Source: an uncultured bacterium
Lineage (GTDB): Bacteria > Patescibacteriota > Minisyncoccia > UBA6257 > 2-01-FULL-56-20
NCBI GenBank assembly: GCA_963725235.1
Contig: CAVRXN010000003.1
Location: forward strand, 139,204 to 203,203
Direction: 5' to 3'
DNA: 64,000 nucleotides
Position 1 is the stretch's first letter. Every line of letters begins with the position of its first letter. Below are positions 2,656 to 56,234 of this stretch, piece by piece. The translations under genes were made by a program, and so were the position numbers. The notes below the pieces were generated by a model. That model saw nothing but the letters and a program-made list of their open reading frames with translations, made no database searches and was not told where the DNA came from.

Positions 2656-3066
2656 TCAATCCCCCGCCTTCCGCACAATCTCCCGGATCGTGCCGACATA
2701 AAAACCGCGCGATTCGTCATCGCGCGGCCCAATAAAAACTTTTGTCGACGGGCTGATGCCCAGTTGCTTCGAGAGTGGCGTCAGGTGGTCCACCAGCAGG
2801 GCAAGTAGTTGCGGATCCGGCCCGAACGTCATCTCGCGAAAACAATAGAGTGCGTCCTCATCCGGAACATACCATCCGCAAACCGCTTTCCGGAAAAAAT
2901 TTTCATCAGCGTTAGCCGCAGCGTCGCTCCCACCGTTCACTCCAATCCACCGTTCGCGCCGGAACCAATCGTAATGCGAAAGCGCGCACCCCTCTTCGGC
3001 AAGCGCTCCAGCCGCAAAGCTAGTAAATGGTAGGACCAACACCGCACAAAGCAAATGCCGAATCAT
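2656..3066 (-). CDS. hypothetical secreted protein
   Basis: 136-aa ORF with N-terminal signal-peptide-like segment MIRHLLCAVLVLPFTSFAAGALA. No family recognised. Confidence 0.55.
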   Translation of the reverse strand: MIRHLLCAVLVLPFTSFAAGALAEEGCALSHYDWFRRERWIGVNGGSDAAANADENFFRKAVCGWYVPDEDALYCFREMTFGPDPQLLALLVDHLTPLSKQLGISPSTKVFIGPRDDESRGFYVGTIREIVRKAGD

Positions 3067-3242
3067 GCCGCACCGAAGACGAAGCTATGTCACGAGATAT
3101 TAGCAGGGGCATGAACCGTACATTCGGTTGATGAAGAAAGGGCGCTTATTTAAGCGCGAAATTAAATGAGTTTCTATCATCGATCAAGAGAACTCCATCC
3201 CGCTCGCCTTTTTCCGAGCCGTCACGATGTGGCGGCTTTTTA

Positions 3243-3749
3243 TTATTTGCTCTTCGTGCCATACCCCAACTCCCGCACCCTCGCCGCGCCTTTCTTCAAA
3301 AAATATTCCCAATGGTCATAATCTTTTTCGGTATTCCTCGCGCGCCAATTTTCAAAAATTTCCTCGGCCGTTGCCCATGCGAGCGTGAACTTCTCATGCG
3401 CCTCGCGCTGAACTGGCACCTGATGATCGCTCTTCAGAATAACCAGGAAGCACGTTGCCTTCGCCACGCGATTCACGTTCTTTAATATATTGTGATAATG
3501 CGTGAACGCCTCCGCGATCTGCTCGACATATAAAAAATTGTCCAGCCCACTTTCCTCGACCACCTCGCGCAAAATTCCTTTTTGAATTTCCTCGCCTTCT
3601 TCCACGCCGCCACTGAACAATCCGAGCAATCCATTCGCATCATGTTTATTCACCGCATATTTTTGCGACACAGGATCAAAAACCACCGCACATCCGCCAT
3701 CGCGCCGCTCCTCGTTCTCACGCTTCGTGCCGAATTCGGGGATGGGCAT
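3243..3749 (-). CDS. Nudix hydrolase
   Basis: Canonical Nudix box GGVEEGEEIQKGILREVVEESGL (GX5EX7REUXEEXGU). Confidence 0.85.
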   Translation of the reverse strand: MPIPEFGTKRENEERRDGGCAVVFDPVSQKYAVNKHDANGLLGLFSGGVEEGEEIQKGILREVVEESGLDNFLYVEQIAEAFTHYHNILKNVNRVAKATCFLVILKSDHQVPVQREAHEKFTLAWATAEEIFENWRARNTEKDYDHWEYFLKKGAARVRELGYGTKSK

Positions 3750-3756
3750 AAATTCG

Positions 3757-6548
<2,792 letters not shown>

Positions 6549-51168: not shown

Positions 51169-52836
51169 ATGTCCTTCTTCAAAAAACTGTATTTCGCATT
51201 CACGAAGAAAGAGCGCATCCTCTTCCTCATTTCCTCGCTCGCTGCCGTCATTAGCTTCATCGTCGTAATCAGCATGGTCATCGCACAGGCGACGACGGCG
51301 TTTCCGTCGCACGGCGGCACGTTCATTGAAGGCGTCGTCGGCCAGCCGGAAAATGTAAACCCCGTGACGGCGCAAAGTGAAGCCGATTTAAGCTTGGTAA
51401 AATTGTTATACGCCAACGTCCCCGATATCGCCGACAGCATAACGTCGTCGACCGATGGCCGAACATGGACCGTCCACTTAAAAGACGGTCTCACGTGGCA
51501 AGACGGCCAACAGCTAACGAGCGACGACGTCATCTTCACCGTGCAATCGATCCAAGACCCCGACTCCGACTCCCCGCTCGCCGCAAGCTGGCAAGGCGTA
51601 ACCGTCAATCGCGTCAGCGAGCTCGAACTGACGTTCACCCTCGCAACACCCTACGCATTCTTCGGCGACAATCTCGCGAATCTCTACGTCATCCCAAAAC
51701 ATATCTTCGCCGACGTCCCGGTCGGCAATTGGCATTTATCCGATTACAATTTAAAACCGGCCGGCAGCGGTCCCTATGAATTCTCCTCTTACAACGAACA
51801 ATCCGACGGTTTCATTTCATCATACGATCTGACGGCGTGGAAAAACTATCCTGGGTCGCAAGCAAACATCAGCAACTTCGACCTCGCGTTTTTTGCAAAC
51901 ACGACCGACCTCCTGCAAAGTTTTAACTCCGGACAAATCAACGGTTTCGGCGGCATCTCGTCGCAAGACCTCGCAAGCATCAATCGCCCATATGACCTCT
52001 TCGCCTGGCGCACGCCCGGCTACTACGCTGTCTTCTTTAACACCAGCAAAAATTTAGCGCTGCAAGATTCATCCGTCCGCGAAGCGCTCGCCGTCGCCGT
52101 CGATCGAAACGGGCTCGTATCGCAAGCACTCGGCGGCAATGGCGCAACCGACTACGGCCCGATTCCGCCCGACGCTCCGTATTATGCGTCGACAACCGAA
52201 CCTGGATTTTCGACCGCTTCAACATCGGCGAGTGATTTCGCAACATCACTATTATCACAAGACGGCTGGGCCATCAGCTCGACGACCGGCTTTCGCGCAA
52301 AGACAATTCAGAAAGTTTCCGTGCCGCTCGTCGTTAATTTGACCGTGCCAGATATCGACTTCCTCGATCAAACCGCAGCGACGCTGCAAACCGACTGGCA
52401 AGCGATCGGCGTGCAGGTGAACATCGCGACCGACACTTCGGAAGACATTATCGCCAACACAATCAAAAACCGGACGTACGAATCGTTGCTCTTCGGCAAC
52501 GTCCTCGGCCCATCCTCCGACCTTTACTCATTCTGGGATTCATCGCAGCGCTTCTCCCCCGGCCTCAACCTCGCGATCTACGACAATCCGAAAGTCGATT
52601 CATTGATCGAGAACGCACGCACCGATCTCACAGTCGCCACGCGCACTTTGCAATTCGCAACCGCCCAGCAAGACATCGTCAACGACAACCCCGCCGTGTT
52701 TTTGTATTCGCCCGACTATTTGTACATAACCAACAAAGACATCCAAGGCATCTCGCCCGATTTATTGGTTGACCCATCGGACTTGTCGCGCGAACAGACG
52801 AGCTGGTATCTCAATACGGCGAGGGTGGTGGAGTAG
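51169..52836 (+). CDS. ABC transporter substrate-binding protein, family 5 (peptide/nickel, OppA-like), membrane-anchored
   Basis: 555 aa with an N-terminal TM anchor. LTWQDGQQLTSDDVIFT and the overall SBP_bac_5 pattern. No permease or ATPase genes adjacent. Confidence 0.75.
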   Translation: MSFFKKLYFAFTKKERILFLISSLAAVISFIVVISMVIAQATTAFPSHGGTFIEGVVGQPENVNPVTAQSEADLSLVKLLYANVPDIADSITSSTDGRTWTVHLKDGLTWQDGQQLTSDDVIFTVQSIQDPDSDSPLAASWQGVTVNRVSELELTFTLATPYAFFGDNLANLYVIPKHIFADVPVGNWHLSDYNLKPAGSGPYEFSSYNEQSDGFISSYDLTAWKNYPGSQANISNFDLAFFANTTDLLQSFNSGQINGFGGISSQDLASINRPYDLFAWRTPGYYAVFFNTSKNLALQDSSVREALAVAVDRNGLVSQALGGNGATDYGPIPPDAPYYASTTEPGFSTASTSASDFATSLLSQDGWAISSTTGFRAKTIQKVSVPLVVNLTVPDIDFLDQTAATLQTDWQAIGVQVNIATDTSEDIIANTIKNRTYESLLFGNVLGPSSDLYSFWDSSQRFSPGLNLAIYDNPKVDSLIENARTDLTVATRTLQFATAQQDIVNDNPAVFLYSPDYLYITNKDIQGISPDLLVDPSDLSREQTSWYLNTARVVE

Positions 52837-52849
52837 ACAGCACATCCCC

Positions 52850-52885
52850 GCGGCTGGATCACTAGATCCAGCCGCTTTTATTTAT
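52850..52885 (+). terminator. rho-independent terminator
   Basis: GCGGCTGGATC-ACTA-GATCCAGCCGC followed by TTTTATTTAT. Confidence 0.75.
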
Positions 52886-52887
52886 AT

Positions 52888-52917
52888 TTGACTTCTTGAA
52901 TGGGTCCGTGCTACACT
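52888..52917 (+). promoter_or_regulatory. sigma70-like promoter (TTGACT-18-TACACT)
   Basis: Lies immediately after the terminator. It would make ATG 52900 non-coding and favours ATG 52966 as the LAGLIDADG start. Confidence 0.4.
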
Positions 52918-52965
52918 ACAATTTCCAAGGTTGAACTCTCCTCATTAAAAACCGACTGGAAATTT

Positions 52966-53601
52966 ATGCATCCACGGCAGAAAGAGATAATTTGGACACG
53001 AGAATTAGCTTACGCAGTCGGCTTGATAACGACGGATGGCTGCCTATATTCTAATGGCCGAACTTTCGATTTTACGTCAAAAGACAGGGACTTGGTTGAA
53101 ACTTTTTGCAACTGCTTAAAAATAGAAAATAGAATCGGCACGAAAAAAAACGGGCACGGAACATCAACTTGCTGGAGGGTCCAATTTGGAAATGTTGTCT
53201 TGTATAAATTTTTACTAGAAGTCGGCCTAATGCCAAACAGATCAAAAAAGCTTAAAGAGCTAAATATTCCTGAGGAACTTTTCTTTGATTTTCTTCGTGG
53301 ACATTTAGATGGGGATGGATCGGTAAAAAGGTACCAAGACCCGATTTGGCCTAAAAGTACGCGGCTATATGTAGTTTTTATATCTGCTTCATCTCCACAT
53401 CTTGTTTGGATAAAAGAAAAGGTAGAAGAACTGCTGGGAATTTCTGGATTTATTCAATTTCATTCGGGTATATACTCTGTGACATTCAGTAAACATAATT
53501 CGATCAAGTTATTAAATAAACTTTATCCTGATCCGGATGTTCCGTGCTTGAAAAGAAAATTTGATATTGCGAAAGAGTTTCTAACAATGCCGAGGTGGTG
53601 A
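52966..53601 (+). CDS. free-standing double-motif LAGLIDADG homing endonuclease
   Basis: Two LAGLIDADG motifs: LAYAVGLITTDGC and FFDFLRGHLDGDGS. The ORF track starts at 52900. The stop TGA (53599-53601) lies inside the tRNA-Leu gene. Confidence 0.8.
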   Translation: MHPRQKEIIWTRELAYAVGLITTDGCLYSNGRTFDFTSKDRDLVETFCNCLKIENRIGTKKNGHGTSTCWRVQFGNVVLYKFLLEVGLMPNRSKKLKELNIPEELFFDFLRGHLDGDGSVKRYQDPIWPKSTRLYVVFISASSPHLVWIKEKVEELLGISGFIQFHSGIYSVTFSKHNSIKLLNKLYPDPDVPCLKRKFDIAKEFLTMPRW

Positions 53602-53675
53602 AATTGGCAGACACGTAGCGTTCAGGGCGCTATGACCGCAAGGTCGTAGGGGTTCAAATCCCCTCCTCGGCACCA
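53589..53675 (+). tRNA. tRNA-Leu (anticodon CAG), class II with long variable arm, encoded CCA
   Basis: Manual fold. Acceptor GCCGAGG/CCTCGGC and D stem GTG/CAC. Anticodon stem TAGCG/CGCTA with loop TTCAGGG. Variable arm GACC-GCAA-GGTC. T arm AGGGG-TTCAAAT-CCCCT, discriminator A, CCA. Confidence 0.9.
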
Positions 53676-53695: not shown

Positions 53696-54136
53696 ATGAC
53701 CGATTGTGCCTTTTGTACATCGCCAGCAGTTAAGGAGCGACTTATAGCTCAAACCGATCTCGTCTGGGCGTTCCCAACTAACATTCCGATAACTCCCGGC
53801 CACGTTTTGATTTGTCCAATCCGACACATCCAAACGTTTGAAGAGCTCACCCCGCAAGAAAAAGAAGAAATTTTCGTACTCGCTACAAAAATTAAAATTA
53901 CATTAAAAGAACTTTTTGGCGCGGAAGGATTCCACCACGCGTGGAACGAAGGAAAGGTCGCCGGCCAGTCAGTCCTCCATTTTCACCTGCATATCGTTCC
54001 ACGGAAGCAGGGCGATGAAGGCATTACAGAATACGAACCTCGAAAATTTCTCTATCGCCCTGGTTCGCGTGAGGCAACATCGGAAAAAGAATTACAAGCA
54101 GTCGCAGCACAAATTAAAAATAAATTAAATTCGTAA
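53696..54136 (+). CDS. HIT family protein (HinT-like nucleotide hydrolase)
   Basis: Histidine triad HFHLHIVPR and N-terminal CAFC. The track starts at TTG 53687; ATG 53696 is preferred. Confidence 0.85.
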   Translation: MTDCAFCTSPAVKERLIAQTDLVWAFPTNIPITPGHVLICPIRHIQTFEELTPQEKEEIFVLATKIKITLKELFGAEGFHHAWNEGKVAGQSVLHFHLHIVPRKQGDEGITEYEPRKFLYRPGSREATSEKELQAVAAQIKNKLNS

Positions 54137-54154
54137 ATAAATAAACATTAACCC

Positions 54155-56234
54155 ATGATTAAAAAACCTGATTCAACTGAAAACAATAAAAAAGAGCAGC
54201 CGAAGGAGCGCGCGCGCATAAAGCCGCCTGAGATTCGGCCGCGGCCAAAGATCGAACCGAAAGAGCCGGGCACGATTCAGATTGGCCGCACGGAAGAGCG
54301 CTACATAAATAGCGAGCGGGGCGAGGATCGGAACGGTGCTGACCGAAACCGCCCGCACGGCGGAAACAGCGGCGGAAGCAACAGTGGTCGACCAGGCGGC
54401 GGCCGCAGCAATCGCCCACCGCGCCGCCAAAGCTTACCGCCAGTTGGCGCCATCAGCCGCTCGAGCGCATCGAAGTTCGGCAACGGCCATCTCGGCCAGT
54501 TCGGCTCGAACGGAAACGGTGGCGCAAACGCAGCTGGCGCAAACGCCGCAGCAATCCCACCCGGCAACCCCGACGCCGTCCGCTTCGTCCCGCTCGGCGG
54601 CCTCGAAGAAGTCGGCCGCAACTGCATGTTCCTCGAATACAAAAACGAGATCGTCATCATCGACGTCGGTTTACAATTCCCGGAAGATGAAACGCCGGGC
54701 ATCGACTACATCATTCCGAACATCCAATATCTCGAAAAGAAAAAGCAAAACATCGCCGCGATCATTTTAACGCACGGCCACTACGACCATATCGGCGCGC
54801 TCCCGCATCTCCTCGGCAAACTCGGCAATCCCCCGATCTACGCGACATCGATCACGAAGGCAATCATCGAAAAGCGCCAGGACGATTTTCCGAATTCGCC
54901 GAAAATGAAAATTATCACGGTGAAGAATCGGCGACGAGATGAAAATCTCGCCGAACTTCGACGCCGTGTTCTTCGGCGTGCCGCACACGATCCCAGAAAC
55001 GACCGGCGTTTTGATGAAAACGCCGGCCGGCAACATCGTCCACTTCGCCGACTTCCGCGTCGACTACAACGACGAAGGCGAGCCGCAGGGCCTCGACGAG
55101 TTCGAGCGGATCGGCAAGATGGGCGTCCACAGCTTTATGGTAGACAGCACGAACGCGGAAAAGCCCGGCCACTCGGTCTCCGAAAAAACCGTCGAGCGCA
55201 ATCTCGAAGAAATTTTCAAAGCTGCTGAAGGCCGCATCATCGTCGCAACATTCGCATCGCTCCTGACCCGCATCGCGGAGATCATCAAGATCGCCGAAAA
55301 GCTCGGCCGCAAAGTCGCGCTGAACGGCTACTCGATGAAAACCAACATCCAGATCGCGGAACAGCTCGGCTTCATCAAAGCGAAAGAAGGCACGATCATT
55401 TCCGTCGAGGAAGTTGCAAAATACAGCGACGACAAAATCATGATTTTGTCGACCGGCGCGCAGGGCGAATCGAACGCCGGCCTGATGAAAATGATCAACG
55501 GCGAACATCGCCACATCAAGATCAAACCAGGCGACACGTTCGTCTTCTCGTCGTCCGTCATCCCGGGCAACGAACGCAGCGTGCAGTCCGTTAAAGACAA
55601 CCTCGCGCGCCAGGGCGCCATCGTTTTCCATCCGCACTCGTCGACATCCACTCATCCGGCCATGCGCCGAAGGAGGACTTGAAGCTCGTGATGAAACTCA
55701 TCAAGCCGAAATTCCTGATTCCGGTGCACGGCTATTATTTCATGCGCGCCGCGAACGGCCAGTCCGCGCGCGAAGTCGGCATCCCGCGAGAGAACGTCAT
55801 TCTGATGGACAACGGCCAAGTCGCCGAACTAACGCCCGGCGAATTCAAGATCACGAAAGAAACCGTGCCCGCATACTACGTCATGGTTGACGGTCTTGGC
55901 GTTGGCGACGTCGAAGAAGTCGTCTTGCGCGACCGCCGCGCACTCGCCGCGGAAGGCATGATGATCATCATCCTGACGATGGGCGCCGGCAAAGGCGGTC
56001 GCCTGCTCAAAAACCCCGACATCATCTCCCGCGGCTTCATCTACTTAAAAGAGAACCAGGAAATGCTCGACGAAATCCGCAAACGCATCCGCGCCGTCAT
56101 GCAACGCATGCCAGCACAACCAAGAAATCGAACCCGATTACCTGAAAACGCTAATCCGCGACCAAGTCGGCCAATTCATCTATAACAAAACCCGCCGCCG
56201 TCCGATGATTTTGCCGGTCGTGATTGAGGTGTAA
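54155..56234 (+). pseudogene. rnj: ribonuclease J with three or more frameshifts and an N-terminal low-complexity extension
   Basis: Metallo-beta-lactamase motif LTHGHYDHIGALPHL, a beta-CASP region, DIHSSGHAPKEDLKL and C-terminal RRRPMILPVVIEV* (stop 56232-56234). Frame changes near 54929, 55635 and 56110. The first ~150 aa are K/E/P/R/G/N-rich. Confidence 0.85.

Follow-up and report, generated by a model that had tools for sequence, protein, structure and literature searches.

A family of free-standing LAGLIDADG homing endonuclease genes linked to bacterial tRNA-Leu genes, with a member inserted between the promoter and the first nucleotide of a patescibacterial tRNA-Leu(CAG) gene

We analysed a 64,000-nt stretch of the genome of an uncultured bacterium of the Patescibacteriota (assembly GCA_963725235.1, contig CAVRXN010000003.1, positions 139,204 to 203,203; hereafter the window), in which a free-standing open reading frame (ORF) with two LAGLIDADG motifs runs directly into the gene for tRNA-Leu(CAG). 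Our reading, to which we give a probability of about 0.8, is that this ORF is a functional and active free-standing homing endonuclease gene (HEG) encoding a single-chain LAGLIDADG enzyme, that it homes without an intron at tRNA-Leu genes, that it is expressed from the tRNA promoter and that it moves together with the linked tRNA allele. The evidence comes from empty sites at the same locus in related genomes, from the conservation of the protein, from the linkage of its relatives to tRNA-Leu genes and from displaced tRNA halves that flank many of these relatives.

A metagenome scan with the upstream family-5 solute-binding protein (SBP) as query returned 65 loci, about 34 of which keep the order SBP, tRNA-Leu(CAG), in some cases the HIT-family hydrolase gene, and RNase J; no endonuclease match was found at these ~34 syntenic loci. 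The spacer between the SBP gene and the tRNA gene measures 752 nt in the window, against 62–140 nt in most empty sites, where it consists of a promoter (TTGACTT..TGCTAyAsT) and a leader of 30–55 nt with a CTCCT-containing motif, followed by tRNA +1. The segment TGCTACACTACAATTTC of the window promoter and leader is identical in L082, the closest empty site. Because promoter and leader are kept in the empty sites and the ORF is AT-rich (34–42% GC, against about 52% in the flanks), the ORF is recognized as an insertion in the pre-tRNA 5′ leader. The window is therefore a filled site, with an insert of about 640 nt between the tRNA promoter and tRNA +1; the other filled sites at this type of locus are L146, L001 and L002.

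In one relative, L085, all that is left of the ORF is its first 24 codons (72 nt), fused straight to tRNA +1. This segment is identical to the window at 49 of 72 nucleotides, compared with 32 of 72 for the best background 72-mer in the locus, and L085 is a deletion remnant. A six-frame search of the empty sites with a hidden Markov model (HMM) found no other degenerate remnant of the ORF, so that a cycle of invasion, degeneration and loss is documented here by a single remnant. L146, which comes from an independent assembly, has an ORF/tRNA junction identical to that of the window; the two loci are ~70–72% identical in the ORF, 100% in the tRNA, 90% in the promoter/leader and 82% at the start of the HIT gene. 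We considered a swap of the endonuclease gene between the window and L146 (ORF ~70%, tRNA 100%), and dropped this idea since the divergence of the HIT gene and of the leader fits ordinary divergence.

The protein belongs to the Pfam family LAGLIDADG_3 (PF14528; 29.5 bits against a cut-off of 22.5, E 9.3e-7), and some members of the family formed by its relatives are already labelled LAGLIDADG homing endonucleases by NCBI. The longest ORF at this position (52900..53601, + strand) would encode 233 aa; we rejected it as the real gene, its ATG at 52900 lying inside the promoter. The homologues are ~210 aa long and start with MHPRQKE, the Met being equivalent to ATG 52966, and residues 1–22 of the long ORF have a predicted local distance difference test score (pLDDT) below 50 in the AlphaFold2 (AF2) model. 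The real start is thus almost certainly ATG 52966 and the product a protein of 211 aa. The aspartates that end the two motifs, D46 (VGLITTDG) and D139 (GHLDGDG) in the numbering of the 233-aa ORF, are invariant in an alignment of 25 sequences with homologues 50–91% identical, and they align with the motifs of the solved structure 2dch.

The AF2 model (pLDDT 86, predicted template modelling score 0.83) places the motif helices at residues 34–46 and 125–138 in a two-domain LAGLIDADG fold, and the model and Foldseek together reveal the pseudo-dimeric arrangement of two alpha-beta-beta-alpha-beta-beta-alpha domains. The best solved structure in Foldseek is I-Tsp061I (2dch, E 4e-13), followed by E-DreI (a chimera of I-DmoI and I-CreI), WhiA, an intein endonuclease and I-SceI, with I-DmoI lower; I-SceI, I-DmoI and I-AniI reach a Foldseek probability of 1.00, and bI3 maturase is also among the structural matches. 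A profile search of the PDB likewise gives 2dch (2.9e-9), in agreement with a sequence search of the same database. Pfam, the alignment and the AF2 model reveal no extra domain in the 211-aa protein, helix-turn-helix (HTH) domains included, and no intein or extein. Between the window and L146 ORFs, pN is 0.158 and pS 0.79 (saturated), which indicates that the endonuclease has been under long-term purifying selection.

These results bear out the description given in an initial annotation of this DNA, which had been made from the sequence without database searches and had proposed a double-motif LAGLIDADG protein encoded between a terminator/promoter pair and a canonical, uninterrupted tRNA-Leu(CAG), with its last 13 nt (including TGA at 53599–53601) being tRNA positions 1–13 and with no intron or intein context. 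Both motifs are present and the Pfam match lies above the cut-off; the terminator and the promoter were both found; ARAGORN and Rfam agree on an intact tRNA; the 13-nt overlap is exact; and the 211-aa protein stands alone.

Searches with the window protein gave more than 1,300 relatives in 90% clusters and 315 clusters (50% identity) at E<=1e-30 in 1.8 billion representatives, and relatives occur in 224 GTDB species genomes. None was found in the viral contigs of IMG/VR, and carriage by phages was rejected on this basis. We surveyed the best 80 genome loci from GTDB genomes, which come from many classes of Patescibacteria and from Chloroflexi, Omnitrophota and Margulisiibacteriota. A tRNA-Leu gene directly abuts the ORF in 77 of them and lies within ~1 kb in the rest: L047 and L076 have a tRNA-Leu(CAA) ~120–960 nt upstream of the ORF, and the ORF start is undefinable in L073. 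Two other loci (L026 and L035) seem to lack the tRNA, which is cut there by the contig end.

Three clades can be distinguished in a neighbour-joining tree of the proteins, each with its own tRNA arrangement. The ORF lies immediately upstream of Leu(CAG) in the first clade, which includes the window; immediately upstream of Leu(GAG) in the second, often with a Leu(CAG) directly before the ORF; and immediately downstream of Leu(CAA) in the third. In the CAG and GAG clades (~64 loci), the stop codon lies 10–36 nt inside the tRNA in 29 loci and deeper in two more; it lies 0–16 nt before the tRNA in ~33 loci and 46 nt before it in one. The overlap of the stop codon with the tRNA is thus typical of the family without being obligatory, and space for separate transcription signals is generally absent. 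The downstream tRNA is complete and uninterrupted at every locus. One metagenome-assembled genome harbours two family members at two isoacceptors (L029 and L074).

Many relatives are accompanied by a displaced half of a tRNA-Leu gene. A scan with HMMs of the 5′ and 3′ halves of tRNA-Leu, with annotated tRNAs masked, detected 22 5′-half fragments within 120 nt upstream of ORF starts on the coding strand, against 51 elsewhere in 1.1 Mb on both strands, i.e., an enrichment of ~40-fold upstream of the ORF. In several loci of the CAG clade (among them L020, L010, L011, L038 and L042), a partial tRNA-Leu 5′ end directly precedes the ATG; in L020, for example, the sequence GCCGCGGTGGCGAAATTGGCAGACGC, with 26 canonical nucleotides, is immediately followed by ATG. 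In 26 of 44 loci of the GAG clade, the upstream sequence contains GGTAkACGC-N5-9-TTGAG, corresponding to the D-arm through the anticodon loop, which ends 16–19 nt before the ATG in half of these loci (13/26), and tRNA positions 1–38 are complete in the displaced half of L029. In the loci of the CAA clade, 3′-half fragments follow closely after the ORF. An old tRNA half, the ORF and a complete tRNA, in this order or in mirror image, thus make up the general arrangement. The old halves are not recent self-duplications, because they differ from the adjacent functional tRNA (in L020, the fragment has the acceptor sequence GCCGCGG, the functional tRNA GCCAGAG). In these relatives, the element is really inserted inside a tRNA gene, with one tRNA half duplicated. 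Upstream of the tRNAs of empty sites, the same kind of search gave weak matches only; fragments seen by eye in L111 and L124 are not significant and were not used as evidence.

Several of these fragments lie in contexts of their own interest. In L017, an ORF of 364 aa with a Fic domain (2895-3989; Pfam Fic 1e-5, motif HPYANGNGRTSR) is located between a tRNA-Leu 5′ fragment (2855-2882, 24.6 bits) and the endonuclease gene (4004-4627), and could represent cargo of the homing cassette. In GAG-clade loci such as L045, L031, L057 and L039, a promoter-like pattern is present ~20–60 nt upstream of the ORF start: the D-loop of the old half reads TTGGTA (TTGACA in L045) and is followed, 17–18 nt further, by TATRAT right after tRNA position 38. 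This TTGGTA-17-18-TATRAT pattern resembles a sigma-70 promoter, and use of the old half as a promoter would account for the conservation of the D-loop and of the spacing, in contrast to the anticodon-stem part, which drifts towards AT-richness. Short tRNA-Leu 5′ fragments were also seen ~40–55 nt upstream of the Leu(CAG) that precedes GAG-type elements in L033 (3803-3820) and L064 (3831-3846); they may be footprints of an earlier insertion and loss at the CAG gene.

The initial annotation had left three interpretations side by side, namely a mobile element homing next to or into the tRNA flank, a remnant of an intron-borne gene and a domesticated nuclease or maturase. The last would be a LAGLIDADG protein that has lost its mobility as a nuclease and is kept for the expression or maturation of tRNA-Leu, as a maturase-like or a WhiA-like DNA/RNA binder; the strict physical link to tRNA-Leu across phyla, the purifying selection and the presence of WhiA and bI3 maturase among the structural matches would all suit it. 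We nevertheless consider domestication very unlikely. The gene is patchy rather than universal, being missing from ~34 close syntenic relatives with the same tRNA locus, one locus (L085) retains a deletion remnant, and the ORF has a foreign composition. Both catalytic Asp residues are invariant and no extra HTH domain is present; WhiA-type proteins have lost the catalytic Asp residues. The existence of three clades at three isoacceptors, of mirror-image arrangements and of duplicated tRNA halves also argues against a host function. The initial annotation had reasoned that an ORF universally present at this locus in relatives, with degraded catalytic residues, would point to a domesticated gene or a neutral remnant; the comparison of the SBP/tRNA-Leu junctions and the alignment of the catalytic residues, both of which it had suggested, gave the opposite outcome, the ORF being absent from ~34 loci that keep promoter, leader and tRNA, and D46 and D139 being intact.

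An intron relic is extremely unlikely. According to this explanation, the ORF was once borne by a group I intron in the anticodon loop of tRNA-Leu, the ribozyme was lost and the tRNA was restored. In favour of it, position 38, where the 5′ halves of the GAG clade stop, belongs to the anticodon loop, the location of bacterial tRNA introns, and the closest solved relative is an archaeal intron-encoded enzyme. A permissive Rfam scan of the region (1.1 kb) found, however, no intron or other RNA family beside the tRNA, and the loci leave no room for a ribozyme, with 5′ untranslated regions of 2–50 nt and stop codons at most 16 nt from the tRNA or inside it. The downstream tRNA is complete and uninterrupted throughout, and the passage from an intron to a duplicated 5′ half needs more steps than a one-ended repair followed by end joining. 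The regional scan is the relevant one for this purpose: a scan of the whole 64-kb window at the gathering threshold gave no match at all and missed even the tRNA, which scores 50.7 bits (cut-off 29) in the 1.1-kb search. The blank result is a filter artefact, and the negatives of the whole-window scan cannot be trusted since a known tRNA was missed. Homing at tRNA-Leu, the first of the three interpretations, is the one supported by the empty sites, the L085 remnant, the invariant aspartates and the linkage to tRNA-Leu.

The tRNA gene itself appears to travel with the endonuclease gene. The window tRNA is of an 'endonuclease-type' allele, characterized by a GCCGAGG acceptor stem, a TAGCG/CGCTA anticodon stem and G38. 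It is 100% identical to the tRNA of the filled site L146, 87% to that of the filled site L001, 85% to that of the remnant L085 and 83–85% to those of the filled Chloroflexi loci L007, L008 and L015, but only 68% to that of L082, the empty site of the closest host relative; the tRNAs of empty sites whose SBP is ~60% identical are mostly at 71–78%, and at up to 82%. In the SBP tree, the window and L001 (filled) and L085 (remnant) alternate with empty sites (L082, L083, L084 and L086/L114). The three former all share the GCCGAGG acceptor, the TAGCG/CGCTA stem and G38, whereas the interleaved empties have a GGGCAGG or GCTCGGG acceptor, a CAGCG/CGCTG stem and T38. This pattern would be most simply accounted for by co-conversion, the endonuclease gene bringing its tRNA allele along.

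From these comparisons, we infer a cleavage activity, a target position, self-immunity, co-conversion and an interplay between RNase P and translation, which may be combined as follows. The enzyme would cut tRNA-Leu alleles that lack the HEG, and repair of the double-strand break from the filled allele would copy the HEG and the adjacent tRNA sequence, such that the linked tRNA allele is co-converted. Between related genomes, homology would be provided by the leader on one side and by the tRNA and downstream DNA on the other, with a result like that seen in the window. In an unrelated context, the tRNA would be the sole homology, and the product would be a displaced old half, the HEG and a complete new tRNA; this could proceed by one-ended invasion from the 3′ half, synthesis through the 5′ half of the donor tRNA and the ORF, and end joining to the broken recipient. 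The cut would be bracketed to the 3′ side of the anticodon arm, at about positions 38–47, because resection would only shorten the old half, and the old halves of the GAG clade end at position 38 and the 3′ halves of the CAA clade start at ~45–48. A site of ~22 bp at that place would include the anticodon, which would explain why the clades are isoacceptor-specific.

The initial annotation had also considered the ORF and the tRNA to be almost certainly co-transcribed. Our analysis supports co-transcription from the tRNA's own promoter, since this promoter is conserved in the empty sites and the search for terminators gave none between the ORF and the tRNA, and the stop codons of the relatives are likewise close to tRNA +1. 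The insert lies between the tRNA promoter and tRNA +1, and the HEG thus has neither a promoter nor a terminator of its own. A candidate internal promoter for the tRNA, TTGATA-16-AACAAT (53561-53588), was rejected as an AT-rich chance match because it ends 1 nt before tRNA +1, too near for a proper transcript start. The HEG would then be transcribed as the leader of the tRNA precursor. The ORF ends with ATG CCG AGG TGG TGA, in which the G of ATG is tRNA position 1, so that RNase P cleavage at 53588/53589 would leave an mRNA devoid of a stop codon, and a ribosome reaching the stop codon would have to unfold the acceptor and D arms. Given that the reading frame runs 13 nt into the tRNA, a given transcript would yield either a mature tRNA or a full-length protein but not both, and the enzyme would remain scarce.

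A more elaborate version of this scheme, which we put forward tentatively, is possible. The cassette would consist of the HEG and a complete, cleavage-resistant tRNA-Leu allele; it would cut the resident tRNA-Leu in the anticodon arm and replace it by gene conversion, leaving behind the old half, reused in the GAG clade as the HEG promoter. Essential tRNA genes would in this way be horizontally overwritten across phyla by an enzyme throttled through the removal of its stop codon by RNase P.

Several observations weigh against homing with a linked tRNA allele. The endonuclease clades of the neighbour-joining tree follow host phyla at a coarse scale, which argues for much vertical inheritance, and no filled/empty polymorphism was found inside one species. 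The host tree in which filled and empty sites are interleaved is based on one protein (SBP) and on neighbour joining. Two empty sites (L111 and L123) have an HEG-type tRNA, and could be former filled sites; tRNAs are also short, and convergence is possible. In the window itself, nhmmer detected no significant displaced tRNA fragment, at most a vestige at 52950-52965. The linked tRNA being intact, self-immunity raises a further problem: a target wholly within the tRNA would also exist in the filled allele, and immunity must then rest on allele differences. No consistent discriminating positions were found in the HEG-linked tRNAs, whose anticodon-stem and variable-arm sequences are diverse. A canonical D-stem is present in 6 of 63 HEG-linked tRNAs, against 28 of 45 other Leu tRNAs in the same data; we rejected this bias as proof of resistant alleles, because the variants concerned (A10, T11 and T13) are also the source of the in-frame TGA or TAA at which the ORF stops.

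The broad agreement of the endonuclease clades with host taxonomy and the lack of polymorphism within species would be expected if the insertion had arrived by homing long ago and were now inherited only vertically, with an enzyme inactive in practice and a similarity of filled-site tRNAs that merely reflects shared ancestry. The promoter, leader and identical tRNA that L146 shares with the window are compatible with such vertical descent. This explanation is in our opinion unlikely, because synonymous sites are saturated at a pN of 0.158 and the catalytic residues have remained invariant. Moreover, filled sites are scattered among empty ones on the host-marker tree, in which a foreign tRNA type is confined to filled or remnant sites, and fresh-looking displaced halves, such as that of L020, argue for recent invasions elsewhere in the family. 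We therefore retain an active HEG that moves with its tRNA allele as the preferred reading. The coordinates of the locus are summarized in Table 1.

Table 1. Features of the endonuclease/tRNA-Leu(CAG) locus and its neighbours (coordinates refer to the window).
Feature	Coordinates	Strand	Remarks
Family-5 solute-binding protein (SBP) gene	51169..52836	+	Upstream host gene and synteny anchor; Pfam SBP_bac_5, E 1.7e-59
Intrinsic terminator of the SBP gene	52850..52885	+	11-bp stem (52850-52875), then a T-run
Native tRNA-Leu promoter, TTGACT-18-TGcTACACT with extended -10 (TG)	52888..52917	+	Now drives the endonuclease ORF too
Retained pre-tRNA 5′ leader, with the motif CTCTCCTC at 52936-52943	52918..52965	+	Serves as the 5′ untranslated region of the ORF now; compared with empty L084 and L086 and filled L001, L002 and L146
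Possible vestige of a displaced tRNA 5′ end (aaCCGAcTGGaAATTt versus GCCGAGGTGGTGAAATTG)	52950..52965	+	By eye, without statistical support
Inferred inserted segment of ~640 nt, essentially the ORF alone	52945..53588	+	From spacer length and GC drop; left edge +/- ~20 nt
Free-standing single-chain LAGLIDADG homing endonuclease gene, 211 aa + TGA	52966..53601	+	
LAGLIDADG motif 1, LAYAVGLITTDGC	53005..53043	+	Catalytic Asp codon 53035-53037; aligns with GLIAADG of 2dch
LAGLIDADG motif 2, FLRGHLDGDGS	53290..53322	+	Catalytic Asp codon 53314-53316; aligns with GFIDGDG of 2dch
ORF/tRNA overlap	53589..53601	+	Final 13 nt of the ORF including TGA (53599-53601) = tRNA positions 1-13
Intact tRNA-Leu(CAG), CCA encoded	53589..53675	+	ARAGORN; Rfam tRNA 50.7 bits at 53589-53672
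HIT-family hydrolase gene	53696..54136	+	Downstream host gene; Pfam HIT, 1.4e-22

The regions flanking the insert present some additional features. The leader motif, which reads ..GAATCCCTCCTT.. / CTCTCCTC, is conserved at both empty and filled sites (window 52936-52943; L084, L086, L103 and others), and its version in L084 (GAATCCCTCCTTCCGCA) has some likeness to the 3′ end of a tRNA, with a non-significant score of 3.6 bits. The 3′ end of the SBP gene (GCGCGGGTGCTGAAATAGG, encoding ARVLK*) looks like the 5′ end of a tRNA-Leu, with matches in L087 (5669-5684), L095 (5648-5666), L102 (5654-5669) and L106 (4218-4236) that reach 4–7 bits in nhmmer (E 3–30); this likeness may be due to chance or may correspond to an ancient displaced fragment absorbed into coding sequence. 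In L146 (549-1199), homology to the window, which covers the promoter, leader, ORF, tRNA and HIT gene, stops exactly at window position 52876, and an unrelated ORF of 216 aa without Pfam match is located upstream of that point in place of the SBP gene.

Downstream, no terminator was detected in the interval between the tRNA and the HIT gene. A HIT protein 86% identical to that of the window is encoded in L149 in a wholly different context, surrounded by a major facilitator superfamily transporter, an amidohydrolase and a serine recombinase, with no tRNA; the 2.67-Mb contig is unexpected for a small-genome relative, and the gene may have been transferred or the contig mis-assembled. The RNase J gene (window 54155-56185, +) is split over three overlapping ORFs in frames 2/0/2, corresponding to the Lactamase_B (54155-55228), beta-CASP (54939-55682) and RNase_J_C (55679-56185) parts. 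This implies two apparent frameshifts, resulting either from a real disruption or from assembly indels. The N-terminus of RNase J is encoded by a region of 65–70% GC and has a Gly/Arg/Asn-rich extension (at ~54200-54600).

The LAGLIDADG protein class and the concept of homing are known already. In the literature that we covered, which is incomplete, we came across no account of a link between LAGLIDADG genes and the tRNA-Leu genes of bacteria. As far as we could find, the apparently new elements are a cellular family of free-standing LAGLIDADG genes strictly coupled to tRNA-Leu, its division into three clades according to isoacceptor, the maintenance of an intact tRNA without an intron, via leader insertion or half-duplication, and the apparent co-transfer of a tRNA allele. 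Free-standing homing endonucleases are considered rare in cellular genomes, and, to our knowledge, homing endonucleases are thought to persist in essential genes only inside self-splicing introns or inteins. The family described here points to a third solution, in which the element is inserted in the transcription unit of the tRNA and the tRNA gene remains whole at the DNA level, through either leader insertion or half-duplication.

If co-conversion does occur, a selfish element would replace tRNA genes horizontally in streamlined bacteria, which would matter for the use of tRNAs as phylogenetic and synteny markers, and the family would constitute a natural drive with cargo, as the Fic gene inside the L017 cassette would illustrate. 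The enzymes are compact monomeric meganucleases (~210 aa) whose predicted targets (the CAG, GAG and CAA tRNA-Leu genes) are related without being the same, a combination that could be used for studying the evolution of specificity, and the stop codon located inside the tRNA provides a testable conflict between translation and RNase P on one transcript.

The closest analogue that we are aware of among the systems compared is SegB of phage T4, a GIY-YIG enzyme encoded by a free-standing gene in a tRNA cluster, whose recognition site includes a conserved tRNA motif and whose homing drives the inheritance of itself and of neighbouring tRNA genes (PMC2330249). Intronless homing with co-conversion has more generally been described for free-standing phage enzymes (PMC3984707). 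The tRNA-Leu family and SegB have in common a free-standing endonuclease gene among tRNA genes and the existence of relatives without the gene at the same locus; a tRNA motif in the recognition site and co-conversion of tRNA would be further common points. They differ by the fold of the enzyme (LAGLIDADG instead of GIY-YIG) and by the carrier, which is the chromosome of Patescibacteria, Chloroflexi and others instead of a phage. Furthermore, the tRNA-Leu family is strictly paired with one tRNA species, with isoacceptor-specific clades, and its ORF abuts or overlaps the tRNA, uses its promoter and leaves displaced tRNA halves.

The archaeal rRNA-intron enzymes I-Tsp061I (2dch) and I-DmoI, and the LAGLIDADG genes present in rRNA insertions of bacteria of the candidate phyla radiation (Tsurumaki 2022, as cited in PMC10714607), share with the tRNA-Leu family a single-chain, two-motif fold of ~200 aa with both catalytic acids and a target in a conserved stable-RNA gene, and the host groups overlap. 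Those genes reside, however, inside spliced introns, and the host RNA is restored at the RNA level, whereas the tRNA-Leu family has no intron and the tRNA is intact at the DNA level via leader insertion or half-duplication. Group I introns, some with endonuclease genes, are also known in the anticodon loops of bacterial tRNAs (PMC3984707). They too are mobile elements at bacterial tRNA genes, and in the GAG clade the junction between old and new sequences is likewise at the anticodon loop. Unlike them, the tRNA-Leu family has no ribozyme, its tRNA is uninterrupted and the endonuclease would be translated from the leader of the pre-tRNA.

Genomic islands and prophages mobilized by integrases insert in tRNA genes, which are made whole again by a duplicated segment of the tRNA. 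As in the tRNA-Leu family, an essential tRNA gene serves as a conserved landing site and the element carries a partial copy of the tRNA; the relatives studied here likewise have a direct repeat of part of the tRNA next to the element (it is not significant in the window). In contrast to such islands, the 0.64-kb insert of the window has no integrase and shows no attachment-site recombination, the element is a single gene of ~0.65 kb, duplication mostly concerns the 5′ half of the tRNA and not its 3′ end, and the mechanism proposed for its acquisition is the repair of a break.

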